50,509 bases of DNA from positions 4,232 through 54,740 of the forward strand of contig CAYWUL010000003.1 of the NCBI GenBank assembly GCA_964461205.1, in the 5' to 3' direction. Numbering within the stretch: position 1 is the first letter of the stretch; the number at the start of each line of letters is the position of its first letter. This DNA comes from an uncultured archaeon. GTDB taxonomy: Archaea > Iainarchaeota > Iainarchaeia > Iainarchaeales > JAAZKV01. The translations under genes were made by a program, and so were the position numbers. The notes under the pieces are model-generated. The model saw only the letters and a list, made by a program, of their open reading frames with translations. It did no database searches and was not told the origin of the DNA. Shown in pieces: positions 4,024 through 20,464 of this stretch.

Positions 4024-5766
4024 CTAATTACTATAATAAGATTTTTTTTGTTTTTGTTCTTTGTCTAATACAGAATCAAATTTGTTTATTCGTGGTCTCT
4101 TTGTTTGAGGATCTCTTCTAACAGTTATTTCTAAATATTCTAATAATTCGTTCATTCCTTTTTCTACTGTAAATGGTCCTGATGCCTCTCCTTTGATTGA
4201 AGGGTCTCCCTTAAAAACCATTAATTTATCACTGACATAATCAACAAAAGTTAAATCGTGGTCAATTATCATTGCTGAACAATCATTTAGCACAATATGG
4301 TTTCTAATAACTTTTCCAATTGCGAGTCGTTGTTCTACGTCTAGATAGGCGGATGGTTCATCTAAAAGATAGATGTCTGCTTTCTTACTCAAACAAAGCG
4401 CGATTGCTACTCTTTGTAGTTCTCCTCCAGAAAGAGTTTTTGCTTTCTTTCCCATTAGGTCTTGTAATTCAAGAGACTTAACAAAGGACTTTTTGAATTC
4501 TTTCAAATGAGTATCGTCAAATAATTCTTCAACTGTTTTGTTTCCATCATAACTAATATATTGTGGCTTGTAAGAAATTTTTGCACTTTGTTCTAGTTCG
4601 CAATTATCTGGTTTGATTTCTTTTGCTAATAATTTCATAAAAGTTGTTTTTCCTATTCCGTTTGGTCCAACAATTCCAACAATCTGGTTTTGTTTTATTT
4701 CATTTTCTTTAACTTTCAATTTAAAAGTGCCAAGTTTTTTTTCTATGTGTGGCCAACTAATTATTGTTTTTCCTTTTGAAGTTTCATTTCTGTTTCCTGA
4801 AAAGAAATCGATTGTGCTTTCTCTAAACCTATAATTTTCTTCTCTTGAATAACCTTCTAAATAATCGTTTATTCCTTCTTTTGTTGTTTTTATTTGCGAA
4901 ACAAAGCCATACACTCTCGGCTTTCCATAAATTAGGTGTATATAGTCACTCAAATAATCTAATAATATTAAATCGTGTTCAACAACCAGTACTGGTTTTG
5001 TTTCAGATATTTTTCTAATAAATTTTGCTACTCTTAGTCTTTCTCGTATATCTAAAAAAGAAGTTGGTTCATCAAAAAAATAAAGGTCTGCTTTTTTTAA
5101 TCCTGTGGCAGCGATAGCAATCTTTTGGAATTCTCCGCCTGACAATTTTGAAATATCTTTATCTAACAAATTTTCCAAGGCTAGTTCGCTTGTAACTTCT
5201 TTTAATCTGTTTTCTTCATCAACTTTTTTTAACAGAGTAACGACTTTTCCTTTTGTATTTAATCCTTCAATATGTTGTGGTTTTACGGCGACTTTGAAAC
5301 CAGAATACAATTGTTTGAAAAATTCTTGTTCTTCTCTTCCTTTATAATATTCCAAGACCCTTTCTTTTTTTCCTTCGTCTTCTCCGAAGTTTTGTATTAT
5401 GTCTCCTGAAAGTATTTTTATGATTGTTGTTTTTCCAATACCATTTCTTCCAACGAGTCCAATGGTTCCTTTTTTTGGTACGGGTAAACCAAATAATCTG
5501 AAGGCATTTTGTCCATATGAATGAACGGGGTCTTTTAAGTCAATTGAAATATTAACAATGCTTATTGCATGAAATGGACATCTGTTTTGACAAATCTCGC
5601 AACCAATGCATAGTTCTTCTGAAATAATCGGTTTTTCGCCTTGTTTATGTGTTATGCATTCTTTTTCGTTTCTATTTACTGGGCACACCTTACTACACAA
5701 GTAATTACCGCATTTTTCAAAATTGCATTTATCGTATTCGATTACTGCTATTCTTTTCTTACTCAT
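4024..5766 (-). CDS. rli: ABCE1/RLI ribosome recycling ATPase
   Basis: N-terminal Fe-S cysteines (CSKVCP, CIGCEICQNRCPF), two Walker A motifs (GRNGIGKT, GPNGIGKT), two LSGGE signatures, C-terminal RPRINK. Start taken at MSKKRIA (5766). Confidence 0.96.
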   Translation of the reverse strand: MSKKRIAVIEYDKCNFEKCGNYLCSKVCPVNRNEKECITHKQGEKPIISEELCIGCEICQNRCPFHAISIVNISIDLKDPVHSYGQNAFRLFGLPVPKKGTIGLVGRNGIGKTTIIKILSGDIIQNFGEDEGKKERVLEYYKGREEQEFFKQLYSGFKVAVKPQHIEGLNTKGKVVTLLKKVDEENRLKEVTSELALENLLDKDISKLSGGEFQKIAIAATGLKKADLYFFDEPTSFLDIRERLRVAKFIRKISETKPVLVVEHDLILLDYLSDYIHLIYGKPRVYGFVSQIKTTKEGINDYLEGYSREENYRFRESTIDFFSGNRNETSKGKTIISWPHIEKKLGTFKLKVKENEIKQNQIVGIVGPNGIGKTTFMKLLAKEIKPDNCELEQSAKISYKPQYISYDGNKTVEELFDDTHLKEFKKSFVKSLELQDLMGKKAKTLSGGELQRVAIALCLSKKADIYLLDEPSAYLDVEQRLAIGKVIRNHIVLNDCSAMIIDHDLTFVDYVSDKLMVFKGDPSIKGEASGPFTVEKGMNELLEYLEITVRRDPQTKRPRINKFDSVLDKEQKQKKSYYSN

Positions 5767-14324: not shown

Positions 14325-16054
14325 TCTTCTTCACCGAATTCAGTTCTTCTTTCTAAAAATTGTTTTGCTTGCTCACTAACTTCTTTTATGCTACGAATAT
14401 TTTGATCCACAAGTTTTTCTAAAAACATTTTTCTTAAATTAATTTCTGATTCTATTTTTGTTTTTGACAAACCAGTAAAACTTTCTAATTCTTTTAAGTA
14501 TTCACTTTCAAATAATGTTCTTTCAATAGTGTCTTTTACTGGGTCTCTATCAAACAAAGTTTTTGTCTTTATTTTTCCTTCTATTCCTCCAACAACTTCT
14601 GCTATCTCACTCACTCTTCTAATAGTTCCTTTTTTTCTATCATGATATCTGTGTTCTACAATAATCATATCTAATCCGGATAACATTACTTCGGGAACAT
14701 TCATTGGTGGGCTAGTCACACGTATTAATGTTTCTCGTGGGCTATTTGCGTGCACTGTCCCGAGGCACCCATCATGCCCCGTATTCACTGCAGTGAATAA
14801 GGTAAATGCTTCTTCGTGTCTTACTTCTCCGACAATTATTCTGTCAGGTCTCATTCTTAGAGAATTTTTTGCAAGTATGTCCATTTTTAGTTCTCCGGTT
14901 CCTTCTAATCCTGGCGGTCTAGCTTCTAGTCTAATCCAGTGTTTTAATGGTAAATTTAGTTCTGCTGTGTCTTCGATTGATACTATTCTTTCTCTGTCAG
15001 GAATAAATGCGGCAAGTACATTTAACAAAGTTGTTTTTCCGGAACCCGTTCCTCCCGAAATAAGCATGTTTGCTGGTTTTGCTCCTAAACCATCTACACA
15101 AATCCATAGGAATGCTGCTGCTTCGCTTGAGATTGTTCCCATCCTTATCATATCAATTATTGAATAAGGATCTTCTCTGAATTTTCTTATTGTTAATGTT
15201 CCTCCACTAATACTTGCGGGAGGAATAGTTGCGTTTACTCTGCTTCCGTCTCCCAATCGTGCATCAAGTAATGGAGATGCAACATCAACTCTTCTTCCTA
15301 CTTCTCTTGCAATTTTATTTATTAGGTCTTCAATTTCTTGTTCTGAAAAAAATTCGATATTTGTTTGCATCATTTCATATTTTCTATGAAAAACATATAC
15401 TGGCGTTTTTGAACCAACAATCATGATTTCTTCTAATTGATCATCTTTTACAAGATCATCAATTAATCCGTATCCAACCATCTCTCTTACTACTGCGCTT
15501 GCATAGAATGATGTTCTTGATGGAGGAATTTTTAGAGAAGGATTGCTCTTTATTATGTCAAGAACTTTTTCTTTGTAAACAATTCTTCTTTCTTCAGCAT
15601 CTCTTATTTTGTAAGGAGCAATACTAATCAATCGTGTTGTTGCTTCTTTTATTGTATTAATTATTCTTCGCTCTGCTTGTGTCGGTCTTATTGTTGGCAC
15701 AAAATAATATTTTAATGGCTTACCCGGAATTTCATAAATAGTTGTTTTTCCATATTGTTCGATTTCAATTTTTTTTCCAGTCTCAAGTTCTTTTTCAACA
15801 AATGTTTTTTCTTTTGTTTTCATTGGTTCGATTTCAAGATCTTCCTTTATTCCAACTTTTTCTTTAAACCCCGCCATGTCTTCTTTTTTTACACTCTCAA
15901 TAGCATCTCTATTTTTTTCATCTTTGTCTTCTTTAACAACTTTTTTCTTTTCTTTTTCTTCACTAGCACTACTTTTTTCAGTGACAGATGGTTGTGTGTC
16001 GGATGACTTGGTTTTTGCTTCATTCATCATATCTTGTAAGTAATCAGTTGTCAT
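14321..16054 (-). CDS. cpaF: CpaF/TadA/VirB11-family pilus assembly ATPase
   Basis: GGTGSGKTT, IEDTAEL, LRMRPDRIIVGEVR, NTGHDG..GTVHAN; charged low-complexity N-terminus. Confidence 0.93.
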   Translation of the reverse strand: MTTDYLQDMMNEAKTKSSDTQPSVTEKSSASEEKEKKKVVKEDKDEKNRDAIESVKKEDMAGFKEKVGIKEDLEIEPMKTKEKTFVEKELETGKKIEIEQYGKTTIYEIPGKPLKYYFVPTIRPTQAERRIINTIKEATTRLISIAPYKIRDAEERRIVYKEKVLDIIKSNPSLKIPPSRTSFYASAVVREMVGYGLIDDLVKDDQLEEIMIVGSKTPVYVFHRKYEMMQTNIEFFSEQEIEDLINKIAREVGRRVDVASPLLDARLGDGSRVNATIPPASISGGTLTIRKFREDPYSIIDMIRMGTISSEAAAFLWICVDGLGAKPANMLISGGTGSGKTTLLNVLAAFIPDRERIVSIEDTAELNLPLKHWIRLEARPPGLEGTGELKMDILAKNSLRMRPDRIIVGEVRHEEAFTLFTAVNTGHDGCLGTVHANSPRETLIRVTSPPMNVPEVMLSGLDMIIVEHRYHDRKKGTIRRVSEIAEVVGGIEGKIKTKTLFDRDPVKDTIERTLFESEYLKELESFTGLSKTKIESEINLRKMFLEKLVDQNIRSIKEVSEQAKQFLERRTEFGEEE

Positions 16055-16111
16055 GCTAGAATTAGTGTATTCTTTATTTTAATTCTTTCGTAGAGCGTGT
16101 TTTTTGATTAT

Positions 16112-16172
16112 TTAGTTTTTCTTTTCTGCAATCTCTTTTTGTAGTTTTTCGATGAATTTTTCTGTTTTCCTT
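16112..16172 (-). pseudogene. Orphan thrS 3'-end fragment no. 1
   Basis: Encodes RKTEKFIEKLQKEIAEKKN*, versus intact MKTDKFIEKLQKEIKDKK*. Confidence 0.9.
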
Positions 16173-16236
16173 GGCCGATTTCGTACGGCCGGTCCGAAGA
16201 ATTTTGGTATTGCTTTTTGCAATACCAAGAAAACGA
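16173..16236 (+). repeat. Structured element copy E1
   Basis: GGCCG-ATTTCGTA-CGGCC-GGTC-CGAAG, then TTGGTATTGC-TTTTT-GCAATACCAA hairpin. Confidence 0.85.
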
Positions 16237-16311
16237 TTACTTTTTTTCTTTTATCTCTGTTAATAGGTTTTTAATGAATTTTTCTGCTTTCATTACTTCG
16301 TGTTTCCACTT
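16237..16311 (-). pseudogene. Orphan thrS 3'-end fragment no. 2
   Basis: Encodes KHEVMKAEKFIKNLLTEIKEKK*, versus intact KQEEMKTDKFIEKLQKEIKDKK*. Confidence 0.85.
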
Positions 16312-16372
16312 GGCCCGTTTCGTCAGGCCACGCCGATTGACTCATGCACTACTTACTGTAGTGCGATAGTAG
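16312..16372 (+). repeat. Structured element copy E2 (most degenerate)
   Basis: GGCCC-GTTTCGTC-AGGCC-ACGC-CGA, then GCACTAC-TTACT-GTAGTGC hairpin. Confidence 0.75.
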
Positions 16373-18103
16373 CTATTTTTTGTCTTTGATTTCTTTTTGT
16401 AGTTTTTCGATGAACTTGTCTGTTTTCATTTCTTCTTGTTTTCCTTGTCTATCTCTTATTGTAACACTCTTTGCTTTCACTTCTTTTTCTCCAACAACTA
16501 TTATGTAAGGGACTTTTTGTTTTTGCGCCTCGCGAATTCTATAACCAAGAGATTCATTTCTGTCATCTAATTTGCTTCTAATTTCTTTGTCAATTAATGT
16601 ATCGTTTAATTCTCTTGCATATTTTGCGAATGTTTCTGCAACAGGAATTATTACGATTTGCCTTGGTGCAAGCCACAACGGGAACGCGCCGCCAAAATGT
16701 TCGATTAATATTCCAACAAATCTTTCAAAGCTTCCAAATGGGGCTCTGTGAATCATTATTGGTCTGTGTTCCTTTCCATCTTTTCCAACATAATTCAAAT
16801 CAAATCTTTCTGGCAAATTATAATCTAATTGTATTGTTCCTGTTTGCCATTCTCTTCCAATAGAATCATTGATTACAATATCTGCTTTTGGACCATAGAA
16901 TGCTGCGTCTCCTTCTTCAATTGTGTATTTGATTTTTGTTTCTTTTAGAACTTCAATAATTTCTTTTGTAGCTTTTTTCCATGATTCTGTTGAACCAACA
17001 TACTTATTGCTTTTTGGATCTCGCGTTCCTATTCTTACTCTGAAATCTTTTAGTCCAAGAGTATTCATTACATGCATTACTAATTCAAAAACTCCTGCAA
17101 ATTCGCTCTTCACTTGTTCGTGTGTACAAAAAATGTGTGCGTCGTCTTGTGTGAATCCTCTTACTCTTAATAACCCACTTAATTCTCCACTCTTTTCGAA
17201 TCTATATACTGTCCCCATTTCACTTAATCTTAATGGGAGTTCGCGATAACTTCTTTTTCCTTTCATATAATATTGTATATGAAAAGGGCAATTCATTGGT
17301 TTTAATAAATATTCTTCTTCGTCAATTTTTATTGGAGAATACATCATTTCTTTATAATGTTCATAGTGCCCAGAAATTTTGAACAATTCTAATCTTCCAA
17401 TGTGTGGGGTCATTACAAAATCGTATCCTCTTTTTTGTTGTTCTTTTATTAAGAAATCTTGTAATTGCATTCTTAGCATTGTTCCGTTTGGTGTCCATAT
17501 TGGTAGGCCTTTTCCGACTTGTTCACTTATCAAATAAAGGTCAAGTTCTTTTCCAAGTTTTATATTTGAGTTTTCTTCTGCTTTTTTTCTATTAGCAATC
17601 CATTGATCTAATTCTTGTTTTGTCTTAAAACTAATTCCATATACTCTTGTTAGTTGTGCATTTTTTTCATTACCTTTCCAGTATGCGGAAGAAATTTTTA
17701 ATAATTTTACTGCTTTTATTTCGCTTGGTTTTTCTAAGTGTGGTCCCTTACAAAGATCTGTGAATGATCCGTTAGAATAAACAGTTACTTTTTTTTCACC
17801 CGCCTTTTCTAAATCATTAATCATTTCAACTTTGTATTTGTTATCTTTGAATAATTCTCTTGCTTCTTTTATTGTTTTTTCTTCACGAACCATTTTTCTG
17901 TTTTGTTTTACAATGTCCTTCATTTTCTTTTCTATTTTTATTAAATCTTCTTCTTTTATTCCTTGTTTTAATTCAAAGTCATAATGAAAACCGTTTTCTA
18001 TTGGCGGTCCGATAGCAATCGTCGCGGTTGGATAAATCTCCTTTAATGCTTCTGCAAATATGTGTGCTGTTGTGTGCCAAAATTTTTCCATTGATTTATC
18101 CAT
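16373..18103 (-). CDS. thrS: Threonine--tRNA ligase, bacterial-type, lacking the N-terminal TGS domain
   Basis: HTTAH and DLCKGPH editing domain, KPMNCPFH, LRVRGFTQDDAH, AFYGPK, IHRAPFGSFERF, anticodon-binding domain; GGAGG RBS. Confidence 0.97.
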   Translation of the reverse strand: MDKSMEKFWHTTAHIFAEALKEIYPTATIAIGPPIENGFHYDFELKQGIKEEDLIKIEKKMKDIVKQNRKMVREEKTIKEARELFKDNKYKVEMINDLEKAGEKKVTVYSNGSFTDLCKGPHLEKPSEIKAVKLLKISSAYWKGNEKNAQLTRVYGISFKTKQELDQWIANRKKAEENSNIKLGKELDLYLISEQVGKGLPIWTPNGTMLRMQLQDFLIKEQQKRGYDFVMTPHIGRLELFKISGHYEHYKEMMYSPIKIDEEEYLLKPMNCPFHIQYYMKGKRSYRELPLRLSEMGTVYRFEKSGELSGLLRVRGFTQDDAHIFCTHEQVKSEFAGVFELVMHVMNTLGLKDFRVRIGTRDPKSNKYVGSTESWKKATKEIIEVLKETKIKYTIEEGDAAFYGPKADIVINDSIGREWQTGTIQLDYNLPERFDLNYVGKDGKEHRPIMIHRAPFGSFERFVGILIEHFGGAFPLWLAPRQIVIIPVAETFAKYARELNDTLIDKEIRSKLDDRNESLGYRIREAQKQKVPYIIVVGEKEVKAKSVTIRDRQGKQEEMKTDKFIEKLQKEIKDKK

Positions 18104-18120
18104 AATTTAACCTCCAATAT

Positions 18121-18164
18121 AACAAAAATCCTGCTCGAAAACCTTTTTAAAATAGATTTTGAGC
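18121..18164 (-). promoter_or_regulatory. Putative attenuator hairpin between the leader peptide and thrS
   Basis: On the - strand: GCTC-AAAATCT...AGGTTTT-C-GAGC immediately after the leader stop, followed by AGGATTTTTGTT. Confidence 0.55.
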
Positions 18165-18221
18165 TTACGCCGTGGTCGTAGTTGTAACAGAAACAGTTTG
18201 TGAACTAGTAACTACATCCAT
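18165..18221 (-). CDS. Thr-rich leader peptide of thrS (MDVVTSSQTVSVTTTTTA)
   Basis: 18 codons with 7 Thr, including 5 consecutive (ACA ACT ACG ACC ACG); lies directly upstream of thrS. Confidence 0.8.
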   Translation of the reverse strand: MDVVTSSQTVSVTTTTTA

Positions 18222-18244
18222 AATATAATTCCAACAAATAGTTA

Positions 18245-18252
18245 TTTATAAA
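18245..18252 (-). promoter_or_regulatory. TATA box for the leader-thrS transcript
   Basis: TTTATAAA with 23 nt between it and the leader ATG, the spacing expected for a leaderless archaeal mRNA. Confidence 0.55.
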
Positions 18253-18295
18253 CTCGTTAAATTTGAATGTAATAATTTGTATAGTTTGATATTAT

Positions 18296-18408
18296 TTTAT
18301 CTCGTTGCTCTTTTGCATGGCCAATTCCGTATGGCCGGTCCGGAATACGCTTAATGTGTTACTTTCAGTGACACAACAGAGAATGTTTATCTCGTTGCTC
18401 TTTTGCAT
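18296..18408. repeat. Perfect 23-bp direct repeat (18296-18318 and 18386-18408) flanking element E3
   Basis: TTTATCTCGTTGCTCTTTTGCAT occurs twice. It spans the last codons and stop (CKRATR*) of ORF 18387-18839. Confidence 0.95.
18319..18386 (+). repeat. Structured element copy E3 (68 bp)
   Basis: GGCCA-ATTCCGTA-TGGCC-GGTC-CGGAAT, then GTGTTAC-TTTCA-GTGACAC, ending CAGAGAATGT. Confidence 0.92.
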
Positions 18409-18839
18409 CTTTCTTTTCCACAAATAGAATGAAATTCTGTACAATAAGTATTCCCGTCAACAGTTTTTTTGTATTTACAATTTTCCCAAGTAGCATTTCC
18501 ACAAAAAGTATCATTACTGCCTCTAATAACGTCTGCAATAATATTTCCATGCCGATTATCAATTTTTTGGTTTCCTCGGTGGATAATTGTTTCTTGTCTT
18601 CTTGGTATTTCTTCAACAACCGTTGAGTTTTCTTGTAAAGAATTTGTGGGTTTTTCGATTTGTGTTTCTATCCTTGATTCTTGTTGGTTGGCCCGATCTA
18701 TGGTTTCGCTTGATACTTGGTTTCCTTGAGTAGTATCAATTATTTGTCCTTGAGATCCAGAATTCTTTTTTTCTTCAAGTTTTTGTTGTATAAGTAGGTT
18801 AGTTCTTCTTGTGTCTTCAACAAAACTTTTAAAGGCCAT
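18387..18839 (-). CDS. Hypothetical protein with a polar linker and C-terminal Cys cluster
   Basis: 150-aa ORF with five Cys in the last 45 aa. Confidence 0.7.
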   Translation of the reverse strand: MAFKSFVEDTRRTNLLIQQKLEEKKNSGSQGQIIDTTQGNQVSSETIDRANQQESRIETQIEKPTNSLQENSTVVEEIPRRQETIIHRGNQKIDNRHGNIIADVIRGSNDTFCGNATWENCKYKKTVDGNTYCTEFHSICGKERCKRATR

Positions 18840-18943
18840 AATAGAACAAATTCTAAAAACAAATAAAAAGCTATTGACTAGTGGAAAATCGAATTTAAGT
18901 AATTAGTTTAAGTAATTTTTTGATTATTATTATTATTGTTATT

Positions 18944-19045
18944 ATGAGAACTACTTGCCCAGTTTGTGGAAGTACTAAATACAAGTTGATTCAAAAAGAG
19001 TATAAATGTGCCAAATGTCATTTTGTGAATAAGGTGGTAGGTTGA
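18944..19045 (+). CDS. 33-aa zinc-ribbon microprotein (not in the ORF track)
   Basis: MRTTCPVCGSTKYKLIQKEYKCAKCHFVNKVVG: CPxCG...CxxC. Confidence 0.75.
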   Translation: MRTTCPVCGSTKYKLIQKEYKCAKCHFVNKVVG

Positions 19046-19054
19046 TTTCTTCAG
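19042..19054 (+). pseudogene. Orphan nre 5'-end fragment no. 1
   Basis: AGGTGG RBS, then TTG ATT TCT TCA G (M-I-S-S versus intact M-I-S-P). The TTG overlaps the Zn-ribbon stop codon (TTGA). Confidence 0.55.
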
Positions 19055-19114
19055 GGCTCCTTTCGTCGAGCCGGAGCGAAGAATTTGGCGTTAACTTCGT
19101 TAACGACAGAAAGC
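19055..19114 (+). repeat. Structured element copy E4
   Basis: GGCTC-CTTTCGTC-GAGCC-GGAG-CGAAG, then CGTTAAC-TTC-GTTAACG, then ACAGAAAG. Confidence 0.85.
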
Positions 19115-19127
19115 AAAAGGTGATGTT

Positions 19128-19150
19128 GTGATTAGTCCAGAACTATGTAT
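19128..19150 (+). pseudogene. Orphan nre 5'-end fragment no. 2
   Basis: AGGTGA RBS, then GTG ATT AGT CCA GAA CTA TGT AT = MISPELC(I). Same peptide as intact nre but with different synonymous codons. Confidence 0.9.
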
Positions 19151-19218
19151 GGCCAATTTCGTATGGCCGGTTCGAAATACGCTTGATGTGCTACTTTCAG
19201 TAGCACTGCAGAGAATGT
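19151..19218 (+). repeat. Structured element copy E5 (68 bp)
   Basis: GGCCA-ATTTCGTA-TGGCC-GGTT-CGAAAT, then GTGCTAC-TTTCA-GTAGCAC, ending CAGAGAATGT. 59/68 identical to E3 by hand alignment. Confidence 0.92.
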
Positions 19219-19231
19219 TTGAGGTAATAGA

Positions 19232-20464
19232 ATGATTTCGCCTGAGTTGTGTATTAAGTGTAAGGGAAAGTTACTTTGTGGTTTAAAAAAATGCCCTATC
19301 TTAGAAAAGAATTTTTCTCAAACAAAAATAGTTTCAAAAATAAAGAACAACGAGTTTTCTGGTGCGACTCCGCCTGGGTTTTTTGTTTCTTGGCAGAATT
19401 ATCCAAAAGTCGCTGTTGCTCCTCTTTCTACCATTCCTGAAGAACTTTCTCCGTTAGCTGATGAACCCGAAAAATGGTATGGTCTTCCTCAAGAACAAAT
19501 AATTTCTTTTAGAGAATCCTTGCTAAGAAGTTACAAAAACATGCCAGTTTCATTAGCAGCAAATCCAAATTATGAGTTAATGGATTTTCAAGAACTAGCA
19601 ATGTCAGAAAAAGTAATGGATGTTGATGTAAAATTAAACAAGGCTCCTTCTGGGCAAACAAAATTTGATTCTTTTTCTGCACCAATGGGACCAAGTGCTG
19701 AACTAAATAAATTATCTTTAACAGAGAATTCTAAGATTCCACAAAAAATTGATTATTATTATTCTGATACAGACGCAAAATCAAATACTGCGTTGATAGA
19801 TTTGTTTGAACACGGTTTTTCAGTTTCAACCCTATCAAAAGTTTTGTCTTCTGGCTCACTTGGTGTAAAAAAGAATAGAAGAATTGTGCCTACAAGATGG
19901 TCAATCGTGGCAGCCCTCGATTCTATCGGAAAAAATTTAATAAATAAAATAAAAGAGTATTCTGTTATTGATTCTATTCAAGTTTTTGAAGATACTTATT
20001 TGGATAATCATTTTATAATAATGCTTTTACCAAAACCATGGTCGTTTGAACAGTTAGAAGTTTGGGTTCCTGGAAGTATTTGGAATATGGAAACCGCTTC
20101 CTCAAAAATAAAGATTTATCACGATCACGAAATGTTTGAAGGGATGAAAGGTTATGCGAATGAAGTTACTGGAGCATACTACGCAGTTCGTCTGCCGATT
20201 GTTGAATATTTAAGAGAAAAGAAAAAACAAGCAATGGTTGTAGTATTCAGAGAAATTGGAGATGGGTACAAGCTTCCGTTGGGTTCGTGGGTTTGTGGTG
20301 AAACGACAAAAGCTGCAATGCAAAAACAACCAAAAATATTTTCAAATGTAGATTTAGCTCTTGAATTTATTGGAAAAAGATTAAAAGTTCCAATCAATAA
20401 ATGGAAGAAAGAAAGTGTTGTCTTGGATTATTATAACAAGCAGAAAACTCTATTCGACTTTTGA
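19232..20464 (+). CDS. nreA: Nre DNA repair protein (DUF650/DUF651) with C-terminal PIP box
   Basis: CIKCKGKLLCGLKKCP, YPKV, RRIVPTRWSI, GAYYAVRL, C-terminal QKTLFDF. Confidence 0.92.
   Translation: MISPELCIKCKGKLLCGLKKCPILEKNFSQTKIVSKIKNNEFSGATPPGFFVSWQNYPKVAVAPLSTIPEELSPLADEPEKWYGLPQEQIISFRESLLRSYKNMPVSLAANPNYELMDFQELAMSEKVMDVDVKLNKAPSGQTKFDSFSAPMGPSAELNKLSLTENSKIPQKIDYYYSDTDAKSNTALIDLFEHGFSVSTLSKVLSSGSLGVKKNRRIVPTRWSIVAALDSIGKNLINKIKEYSVIDSIQVFEDTYLDNHFIIMLLPKPWSFEQLEVWVPGSIWNMETASSKIKIYHDHEMFEGMKGYANEVTGAYYAVRLPIVEYLREKKKQAMVVVFREIGDGYKLPLGSWVCGETTKAAMQKQPKIFSNVDLALEFIGKRLKVPINKWKKESVVLDYYNKQKTLFDF

Follow-up and report, generated by a model that had tools for sequence, protein, structure and literature searches.

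A family of short pseudoknotted elements, in part flanked by long direct repeats at gene borders and found within tRNA introns, in an archaeal lineage

Intron transposition is known to occur in the tRNA genes of Thermoproteales. Repetitive extragenic palindromic sequences (REPs) are imperfect palindromes of 20-40 nt with a conserved 5′ tetranucleotide and a gene for a REP-associated tyrosine transposase (RAYT) of the Y1 type, and IS200/IS605 elements insert 3′ of a fixed target word of 4-5 nt and are not known to make a target duplication. Hatchet and the hepatitis delta virus (HDV)-like ribozymes, among them the phage theta ribozymes next to tRNAs, are self-cleaving ribozymes that cut at their own 5′ edge. 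For archaeal tRNA introns, the route of arrival is stated to be open in a passage of an Asgard survey (bioRxiv 10.64898/2026.10.13.758758), and a section of PMC3293823 proposes that mobile DNA creates both introns and tRNA fragments. Long target duplications in bacteria, according to a passage of PMC2853133, are commonest in naturally competent species. The present work deals with a short structured element (E), five copies of which (E1-E5) stand at gene ends in the window, by which is meant the whole stretch of 50,509 nucleotides analysed here (positions 4,232 to 54,740 of contig CAYWUL010000003.1, from an uncultured archaeon of the GTDB lineage Iainarchaeota). The family to which these copies belong, which is found both as dispersed insertions between direct repeats and as the core of tRNA introns, can be explained, at about even confidence, as a DNA-level non-autonomous structured element that inserts with a long and variable target duplication.

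The copies in the window are 60-67 nt long, start at 16173, 16312, 18319, 19055 and 19151, and lie all on the forward strand, exactly where a preliminary description of this DNA had placed them; the motif GGCCNNTTYCGTNNGGCC, allowing up to two mismatches, has these five matches in the window against 0.02 expected, and none of 100 shuffles reaches five. E1 and E2 are downstream of thrS, E3 is downstream of a gene of 150 aa, and E4 and E5 are upstream of nre. Directly 5′ of each copy sits a truncated duplicate of the gene end found on its other side. The element is preceded by a T and opens with GGCC in four of the five copies, whereas E4 has a G followed by GGCT, and reading of the sequence bears out both this junction and the duplicated gene ends first described (threonyl-tRNA synthetase tails, a 23-bp repeat and Nre starts). 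The features of the region are as follows (SD, Shine-Dalgarno sequence; ORF, open reading frame).

16112..16172, minus strand: orphan X1, a C-terminal end of threonyl-tRNA synthetase (ThrRS), 19 codons and its own stop, 84% alike to the live end over 55 nt
16173..16236, plus strand: E1, with an AGAAAAC-type tail; covariance model score 41.2 bits, hairpin 2 z -5.5
16237..16311, minus strand: orphan X2, a second ThrRS end, 24 codons and stop, whose tail resembles the ThrRS tail of genome G001
16312..16372, plus strand: E2, with a GATAGTAGC-type tail; 34.5 bits; its 3′ end abuts the thrS stop codon
16373..18103, minus strand: thrS, intact, 576 aa; Pfam tRNA-synt_2b, HGTP_anticodon and tRNA_SAD
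18296..18318, no strand assigned: left copy of the 23-bp repeat (stop and seven codons of the 150-aa gene), 100% identical
18319..18385, plus strand: E3, with a AGAGAATG tail; 40.6 bits
18386..18839, minus strand: right copy of the 23-bp repeat (18386-18408), running into the intact 150-aa gene
18944..19045, plus strand: small Zn-ribbon-like ORF, 33 aa, with Pfam matches below cut-off only
19028..19054, plus strand: Xa, first nre repeat unit, consisting of the Zn-ribbon gene end, an SD and 13 nt of an old nre start; boundaries by inspection
19055..19114, plus strand: E4, with a ACAGAAAGC tail; 37.8 bits
19115..19150, plus strand: Xb, second nre repeat unit, an SD and GTG ATT AGT CCA GAA CTA TGT AT
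19151..19217, plus strand: E5, with a AGAGAATG tail; 43.1 bits, the best match
19218..20464, plus strand: Xc (SD and start), running into intact nre, 410 aa; Nre_N 1e-89, Nre_C 1.9e-31

The orphan X1 ends at the first base of E1, with a translation that closes on ...KTEKFIEKLQKEIAEKKN and the stop. ThrRS tails are thus present in three copies (16112-16172, 16237-16311 and from 16373 onward), 76-84% alike over 55 nt, each with an open frame and its own stop codon, the last 55-75 nt of thrS being the live repeat copy (X3). Nre starts likewise occur three times (about 19028-19054, 19115-19150 and from 19218 onward); VISPELCM and MISPELCI differ at synonymous sites only. The unit Xa, which stops at E4, contains the last codons and stop of the Zn-ribbon ORF, overlapping the old nre start; Xb is an orphan with respect to both neighbouring genes; and the nre coding ORF itself runs from 19232 to 20464 on the plus strand. 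E3 and E5 are 87% identical over 75 nt. No Pfam family was found for the 150-aa gene (18387-18839, minus strand), and ARAGORN finds no tRNA in the window. Every junction between 15900 and 19400 is spanned by zero-mismatch contigs of the public runs X1 and X3, which may include the window's own sample, and therefore a local misassembly, the strain chimera that had to be considered from the outset, is unlikely.

The genome of the window (G000; 783 kb in 21 contigs, 31% G+C, 85% complete) was searched for further copies with a regular expression and then with single-sequence nhmmer, and a covariance model of the 34-nt 5′ domain (R1) was built from 21 copies. At E <= 1 this model recovers 23 sites in G000, 21 of them its own training set and two new, and nhmmer adds about nine variant copies, in which the 5′ hairpin differs and the linker, second hairpin and tail are shared. 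A covariance-model scan of relatives, as proposed in the preliminary description, shows the family to be present (E <= 0.01) in 22 of 40, including 9 of 11 genomes of the same genus, and in a phylum-wide sample 46 of 150 genomes are positive (E <= 0.001); among the matches listed, all fall in the same order, in which one family has 16 of its 17 genomes positive. A degenerate pattern of the 5′ domain retrieves 26 records from contigs of named genomes, 15 of them GC-rich bacterial ones, taken as chance matches of a GC-rich pattern, and 11 archaeal ones titled Candidatus Iainarchaeum archaeon, uncultured archaeon or archaeon; these titles suggest that the hosts of the family are Iainarchaeota-like. 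Viral contigs give no match to one degenerate 26-nt 5′-domain pattern, a single pattern that cannot exclude viral carriage, and metagenome contigs, searched for a source copy, give none to a 46-nt exact stretch of E3. With Rfam 15 (cmscan), the whole window has no match at gathering score, and at E <= 10 the region 16000-19400 has four unrelated weak matches, none on any element copy, in keeping with the view of a previously uncatalogued structured element. The original observation is real, and more general than first noted.

The orientation of the copies deserves a separate comment. The uniform forward strand reported for them holds in the window and not beyond it: genome-wide in G000, 13 of 18 neighbouring copy pairs have the same orientation (counted from coordinates), and model matches in G038 (two contigs) and G049 (a single contig) are of mixed orientation. 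A dependence on the transcription of the host gene was rejected, given that the fraction of same-strand genes near copies spans 0.04 to 1.0. In G000, 21 of the 32 copies group in five clusters of 3-34 kb (contigs C3, C4, C8, C9 and C10), mostly with uniform orientation inside each cluster, and these clusters could reflect local spreading or regional hot spots. At the position before the element (-1) there is a T in 27 of 52 copies, compared with 35% genomic T, and at -3 a C in 20 of 52 (genome C 15.5%) and an A in only 3 of 52, biases that may stem from a weakly preferred target or from one more base pair, formed with the conserved G19. A role as terminator was also discarded: T-runs follow 18 of the 52 copies, compared with 24% among random windows of 40 nt, which is too weak an excess.

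The element starts with a GC-rich hairpin of 5-6 bp, which begins at the very first base and is closed by a TTYCG loop, continues with a second hairpin and ends in a short purine-rich tail, with AGAAAGC or AGAGAAT as variants. The loop pairs with a CGRAR motif four bases past the hairpin, giving a compact H-type pseudoknot. In an alignment of 49 copies (A3), gap-free over 34 columns, the column pairs with the highest mutual information are 1-18, 5-14, 2-17, 9-25 and 4-15. When the 5-bp hairpin (1-5 with 14-18) and the pseudoknot helix (7-11 with 23-27) are counted on this alignment, 91.8% of cells are paired, against 75.6% after shuffling (none of 500 shuffles reaches the observed value) and 34-50% in slid controls. 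Double changes are seen at all five hairpin pairs, and at pair 9-25 the copies have either U-A (43) or C-G (six), with zero exceptions; by inspection, genome G002 adds a G-C there. The outer two pseudoknot pairs are paired in only 71-76% of copies. The pseudoknot helix contains 35 U.G wobbles, and therefore the fold belongs to the sense strand of the element. For the second hairpin (7-12 bp), z is below -2 in 18 of 23 G000 copies, and the sequence varies between copies. Altogether, the motif is a candidate new pseudoknotted RNA fold with its first nucleotide as the probable functional boundary: this nucleotide stands at the foot of the pseudoknotted hairpin, and would be a natural stop for an exonuclease or a target for a structure-specific nuclease.

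Some unusual members of the family were also noticed. Three strong matches of the 5′ domain in G000 (C8:37583-37616, C4:37311-37344 and C16:15039-15072) have no second hairpin; two of the three lie inside long opposite-strand ORFs, and the reverse complement of the C8 match can be read in frame as part of an acidic stretch of low complexity in an ORF of 1093 aa. Another copy, at G000:C10:30500-30590 on the minus strand, has an internal threefold tandem repeat of about 27 nt, which spans from the 3′ strand of the first hairpin to the pseudoknot partner and overlaps a 76-aa ORF call with a repeated peptide.

Direct repeats that end at the first base of E and resume after its tail were found, by alignment and inspection, at 14 of 32 copies in G000 and at 13 of 29 loci in relatives. 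Under a strict rule (a repeat score of at least 36 ending at the junction), they occur at 10 of 23 model matches, compared with 6 of 1500 random positions, which confirms the 5′ edge as a precise join point; the expectation that matches would always abut gene-end duplications does not hold, as flanking repeats are present at only about 45% of copies. Their length ranges from 11 to 75 bp. Identical repeats of 23, 35 and 19 bp are found in G000, and of 40 bp in G020, 34 bp in G011 and 49 of 49 coding bases in G007, and some repeats lie in promoter regions or other non-coding DNA, or are parts of tRNA genes. Several of them, identical or non-coding, resemble target-site duplications, contrary to the initial impression that most are not simple duplications of this kind. 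In the case of nre, each repeat unit carries both the last codons and stop of the Zn-ribbon gene and the nre start; in genomes G004, G005 and G003 the Zn-ribbon gene runs into the start of nre and no element separates the two. The left unit serves the gene on its left and the right unit the gene on its right, exactly what a target duplication predicts. In genome G011 (locus L051), an intact tRNA-Leu lies 5′ of the element and an orphan 3′ part downstream, therefore strict polarity is not universal; the constant order of truncated end, element and intact gene described for the five window copies is not kept at this locus, nor do the nre units, which serve both genes, fit it strictly.

When a copy lies upstream of a sense gene, a strong SD (AAAGGTGA-like or GGTG) follows, better than the native sequence in the left repeat. 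This was seen by inspection in the window (19100-19231), at radical-SAM loci of G007 (L108) and G000 (L105) and at G000:C2:30242; many element-free orthologues have, also by inspection, no obvious SD. The element may thus be the carrier of a portable ribosome-binding site.

The empty-site alleles that had been suggested as a check are present both in relatives and in population contigs. E is missing at 8 of 10 assessable thrS loci of the genus (G004 and G001 have one, and G006 ends at a contig edge), at 10 of 10 assessable nre loci and at 17 of 20 radical-SAM loci. Variant contigs from lake runs lack E3 together with one repeat (joints 18281 to 18402 and 18272 to 18394) and encode a synonymous variant of the gene end. 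In a further variant allele (public runs X1, X3 and X6; 18272-18402), the left repeat and E3 are replaced by 32 nt that resemble only hairpin 2 plus the tail of a different element type and directly adjoin the stop codon, which may represent a 5′-truncated copy. Occupied sites, for their part, recur. The start of the radical-SAM gene carries unrelated element types in G000, G003, G007 and G002, with 5′ edges after nucleotides 61, 61, 49 and 11 of the coding sequence, respectively, and a 3′ end always followed by SD and ATG. At the end of thrS there are elements in G000 (two copies), in G004, in G001 and in a sister strain, the last with a different element type between the same two junctions as E2. 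Finally, tandem arrays of the form repeat-E-repeat-E-repeat with identical units exist in G001, G009 and G002, which unequal exchange between repeats would produce.

A connection overlooked in the preliminary description is that with tRNA introns. ARAGORN, run with introns, reports 25 tRNAs in G000, nine of them with introns of 13-106 nt, and some tRNAs of this genome (85% complete) may escape it through long or non-canonical interruptions. The element or its variant is the core of four of these nine introns, with its 5′ edge at the 37/38 junction: canonical copies are present in sense in the intron of tRNA-Ser(TGA), of 79 nt, and in antisense in that of tRNA-Tyr(GTA), of 106 nt, where the last base of the intron is the first base of the copy; and the 81-nt and 87-nt introns of tRNA-Glu(CTC) and tRNA-Glu(TTC) contain a variant element from the first intron base. 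In relatives, 12 of 29 loci are at tRNA genes. Four of these copies are intronic with the 5′ edge at the intron border, those of tRNA-Lys(TTT), tRNA-Ser(GCT) and tRNA-Arg(TCT) in sense and that of tRNA-Tyr in antisense, the latter conserved with G000; six have the 5′ edge at 0-4 nt from tRNA nucleotide +1, on the opposite strand; one directly follows a tRNA 3′ end; and one lies upstream of a tRNA whose first 19 nt are duplicated. Membership in the 37/38 introns is naturally limited to the copies inside tRNA genes.

The element might be imagined as the vehicle of archaeal tRNA intron gain, an idea that is rather doubtful as a whole. Host enzymes that process RNA or DNA ends would cut and rejoin the end set by its pseudoknot base, so that it would spread without encoding a transposase or a reverse transcriptase; at 37/38 it would turn into an intron and elsewhere into a gene-border module with its own SD, seeding the exchange of gene ends between lineages. 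Candidate host enzymes would be the splicing endonuclease or RNase P, a ligase, and a primase or polymerase.

Comparison of orphan and live gene ends points to a history of recombination. By inspection, the Nre orphan differs from the live start at no fewer than eight positions (at least 8), all synonymous, and in a thiolase-like gene of contig 2, 13 of 14 differing codons are synonymous; such divergence is therefore not the decay of a dead fragment, and both copies were once under selection. The thrS gene of G000 is an intragenic mosaic of two deep allele classes: residues 141-460 of ThrRS are 70-95% identical to those of G007, G003a and G006 and 32-50% to those of G004, G001 and others, whereas for the N-terminal 140 and the C-terminal 100 residues the nearest relative is G004. 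The ATPase gene beside thrS is uniformly 71-77% identical to all relatives, and G003 carries both ThrRS classes. The idea that the orphan termini resemble alleles of other lineages is borne out, X2 being similar to the G001-type tail, X1 and the live tail to the G004 type, and the Nre orphan (Xb) identical over 14 consecutive bases to the live G004 allele. The simplest explanation would be that alleles of relatives overwrote the live gene and left the orphan beyond E untouched; the arrival of E together with the new allele, the main rival, fits the same data.

Enzymes of mobility were searched for as four Pfam families in five genomes (G000, G001, G008, G034 and G038; completeness 85-97%, two at 94-97%). 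No match was found in any of the five for Y1_Tnp (PF01797; control positive in 6 of 14 known genomes) or for RVT_1 (PF00078; control positive in 3 of 14), so the HUH nuclease or reverse transcriptase proposed earlier as driver finds no counterpart in them. Phage_integrase (PF00589), the family that bears on a comparison with integron attC or similar cassette sites, which have a dedicated tyrosine recombinase and a fixed crossover core, gives two matches in each of G001, G008, G034 and G038, which could be Xer-type, and none in G000 (85% complete), and TnpB is above cut-off in G034 only. In the window, as first reported, there is no transposase near the copies and there are no terminal inverted repeats.

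Among described classes, a palindrome-associated transposable element (PATE) derived from IS200/IS605 was rejected, with no Y1 transposase in the five genomes, no fixed target word and duplications of 11-75 bp, and so was a classical miniature inverted-repeat transposable element (MITE), since the ends GGCC... and ...AGAGAATG or ...AGAAAGC are not inverted repeats and the duplication length varies from 11 to 75 bp; the defining features of known IS200/IS605 or MITE families, a match to which had been named in advance as the observation that would undo the proposal, are thus missing. A REP/RAYT system was set aside for lack of a Y1 match and for an element of 55-70 nt with two different hairpins and a pseudoknot, and an element like the short interspersed nuclear elements (SINEs) for lack of PF00078 in the five genomes. 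C/D box small RNAs (sRNAs) were excluded by the absence of C (RUGAUGA) and D (CUGA) boxes from the aligned copies (inspection) and of any Rfam match; for the known ribozyme classes (HDV-like, hatchet, pistol, twister and hammerhead), no Rfam model matched any copy. An HDV-like topology, a T-loop mimic and H/ACA boxes were dropped by inspection, with no formal tests. Finally, an intron role in protein genes was discarded, also by inspection, since the repeats are direct and not complementary and cannot form a bulge-helix-bulge.

The explanation preferred here, insertion with target duplication, would start from a lineage-wide family of structured, non-coding and non-autonomous elements of 55-70 nt, whose copies would insert elsewhere as complete units, exact at either end. 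Each insertion would duplicate 11-75 bp of the target, leaving the element between two copies of its landing site. In a compact genome, the insertions that survive would be those at gene borders, where one repeat copy keeps the neighbouring gene intact and the other remains as an orphan end; those in tRNA genes would survive only at 37/38, as introns, or flush with the mature tRNA ends. Repeated insertions at hot spots, together with unequal crossing-over between repeats, would give rise to the arrays. Orphan and live copies would then diverge with coding preserved, because live genes would be repeatedly overwritten by recombination with diverged relatives. The fold, the size and spread of the family, its repeats, empty sites and hot spots, the membership in tRNA introns and the mosaic genes are shown by the sequences; as for the chemistry of insertion, we infer a staggered or flap-type joining carried out by a trans-acting or host enzyme, through either a DNA or an RNA intermediate. 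The serial gene-end replacement of the preliminary description is best seen as a by-product of such insertion in a compact, recombining genome.

Several observations weigh against this explanation. The coding-preserving divergence of orphans requires a second process. Different element types occupy identical junctions in G000 and its sister strain, and in G000 and G003, which simple insertion does not predict. No near-identical copies exist at different G000 loci, the closest pair being 87% identical, and the 5′ and 3′ modules are shuffled between copies, unlike in a recently active copy-and-paste family. In most repeat-bearing copies, by inspection, E stops on its 3′ side at a distance of 0-2 nt from the stop codon when the intact gene is antisense, or just upstream of the SD or ATG when that gene is sense; random cuts with selection for gene integrity only should have spread this offset over tens of bases. 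The SD in the tail (AAAGGTGA-like at three unrelated loci) could leave only near-ATG insertions viable in the case of sense genes. Among the four Pfam families searched in the five genomes no enzyme was found, a result by which other nucleases or transposases are not excluded. Helix 1 forms part of the search model, so its pairing among the matches is partly selected for; the pseudoknot helix is absent from that model. Moreover, no RNA run was listed for 15900-19400, and E is at most a putative transcript.

Instead, the element might have travelled with donor DNA, a scenario that is possible and on the whole unlikely. E would lie on a linear piece of DNA from a relative that ends at the 5′ edge of E, either cut there by a nuclease or trimmed by an exonuclease that the pseudoknot halts; the far side would be fixed within the gene through homologous recombination, and the E end would be joined illegitimately in the resident gene end (homology-facilitated illegitimate recombination), so that old termini would pile up in their order of arrival. 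This accords with orphans that are open, coding-preserved and similar to live alleles of other lineages, with flanking genes that are demonstrably mosaic, with element types that differ between array units and between strains at the same junctions, with the constant 3′ junction and variable 5′ junction at the radical-SAM gene, and with the lack of an identical source copy in G000; the bacterial long target duplications that PMC2853133 describes, in the passage already cited, as commonest in naturally competent species would also agree with it. However, none of the 10 assessable relatives has an E upstream of nre to act as donor, repeats are also found in promoters and tRNA parts and with the opposite polarity, and in the thrS mosaic the C-terminal part proximal to E is the resident, G004-like one, the foreign tract being internal. 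Orphans, in addition, never exceed about 75 nt although longer ones would be harmless, and the primary placement of E at overlapping genes would still require a duplication step.

A spread through RNA appears improbable. E would be a small RNA processed from an intron or an untranslated region (UTR), its 5′ end made by self-cleavage, by RNase P acting on a tRNA-like pseudoknot stack or by the splicing endonuclease, which would be ligated or template-switched onto RNA ends and returned to DNA by RNA-templated repair or by an unrecognised reverse-transcribing polymerase. The coincidence of the 5′ edge with RNA-processing sites (the tRNA 37/38 junction, tRNA nucleotide +1 and one base past the tRNA 3′ end) would follow from such a route, as would the strand specificity of the fold shown by the U.G wobbles and the single case of a variant with only the 3′ half at the E3 site, resembling a 5′-truncated retro-copy; precedents are the circularisation and re-insertion proposed for archaeal C/D sRNA genes in a section of PMC6009581 and the RtcB-made chimeric RNAs that are reportedly retrotransposed in human cells (PMC6789731). 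Nonetheless, RVT_1 is missing from the five genomes, antisense and sense copies of E relative to the host gene are about equally frequent, the conserved tRNA-Tyr intron being an antisense case, there is no Rfam ribozyme match, the fold has by inspection no HDV-like order of nested double pseudoknots, and no RNA run was listed for the region. Still less probable is a host RNA or regulatory module that does not move at all (a UTR end-protector, a terminator or an SD-bearing leader) and is kept by selection at gene borders, the repeats and arrays deriving from slippage, unequal crossing-over and gene conversion. Compensatory substitutions in the stems with fixed core bases, the strong AAAGGTGA-like SD that follows gene-start copies and is better than the native one (inspection), and the conservation of E between species in tRNA-Tyr and tRNA-Glu contexts speak for it, as does the parallel with C/D sRNA genes, which lie at a mean of 22 nt from genes, supply stop codons and adjoin tRNAs according to passages of PMC6009581. 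Patchy presence and absence at orthologous sites among close species, unrelated element types at one site, identical long flanking repeats with population-level empty alleles, and an orientation indifferent to the host gene are all at odds with such a module. Very improbable, finally, is a miniature derivative of a known transposon class (IS200/IS605 PATE, REP/RAYT or classical MITE) or an assembly artefact. The hairpins near both ends, the shared orientation of neighbouring copies (13 of 18 pairs) and the enrichment of T at -1 (27 of 52 against 35% in the genome) are reminiscent of transposons; they are outweighed by the absence of Y1_Tnp from all five genomes and of above-cut-off TnpB from all except G034, the lack of terminal inverted repeats and of a fixed target word, and the presence of long duplications, which IS200/IS605 is not known to make. 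An artefact is contradicted by the zero-mismatch contigs of two runs that bridge the junctions and by the recurrence of the family in dozens of independently assembled genomes.

Two features of the window apart from the elements can be mentioned here. Between the start of thrS and the left repeat of E3 (18104-18295), about 190 nt contain no real-looking ORF of at least 40 aa and no Rfam match, an unusually long gap for so compact a genome. Over the whole window (1-50509), the sign of the GC skew switches near 4, 24, 36 and 38 kb.

Regarding the significance of the family, its elements explain apparent pseudogene fragments at gene ends, and may explain tRNA genes that standard finders miss, both of relevance for annotation. 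The fossil gene ends beside them record allele replacement in ultra-small, highly recombining genomes of the DPANN type. One short family in two states, as tRNA introns at the canonical position and as scattered insertions that show duplicated targets, empty sites and polymorphism within populations, makes the gain of introns by insertion directly testable in a single lineage.

Compared with described systems, the element shares with REPs and bacterial interspersed mosaic elements (BIMEs), PATEs and MITEs the character of short, abundant, hairpin-forming, non-coding intergenic repeats with a locally biased orientation, and differs from them in having no fixed short duplication and ends set by the base of a pseudoknot. 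It resembles the ribozymes that cut at their 5′ edge in its size of about 65 nt, its pseudoknot, a boundary at the first nucleotide and the location of some copies directly after tRNA 3′ ends or stop codons, whereas its helix order is not that of HDV and antisense copies are frequent. The archaeal C/D sRNA genes of Pyrobaculum, as portrayed in parts of PMC6009581, are equally units of small-RNA size flush with gene ends, overlap stop codons, lie a few nt from tRNA 3′ ends or inside tRNA introns, and have undergone family expansion and rearrangement; the fold of E is a pseudoknot plus a hairpin and not a k-turn RNA, and it has long flanking repeats.

The mobile or recent archaeal tRNA introns come closer, with related sequences at 37/38 of several different tRNAs and a patchy gain between species, as here; the arrangement in genome G021 of a tRNA fragment, then the element and then the intact tRNA adds to the likeness. 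The studies of such introns, among them those of the Caldiarchaeum tRNA-Thr locus (PMC3293823) and the Asgard survey (bioRxiv 10.64898/2026.10.13.758758), report either a recombinase-bearing element of 1.8 kb or no arrival route, whereas in the present family the short element of the introns occurs outside tRNA genes as well, and there with duplicated targets. The other close parallel is that of bacterial insertions with long target duplications, in which direct repeats of tens of bp, variable in length, lie on both sides of the insert, are single-copy in genomes that lack it, frequently overlap the 3′ ends of genes and can drive tandem amplification, with neither a transposase nor an integrase present. 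Long direct repeats, for which more than about 20-30 bp are taken as characteristic, and empty sites in relatives place the element described here in the same class. The bacterial inserts are kilobase coding units, and no archaeal case passed the filters of the survey that describes them, in the portion dealing with that selection; the archaeal element is a structured non-coding unit of 60 nt, present in dozens of copies and also as a tRNA intron, and would extend insertion with long target duplication both to archaea and to a unit of this size.

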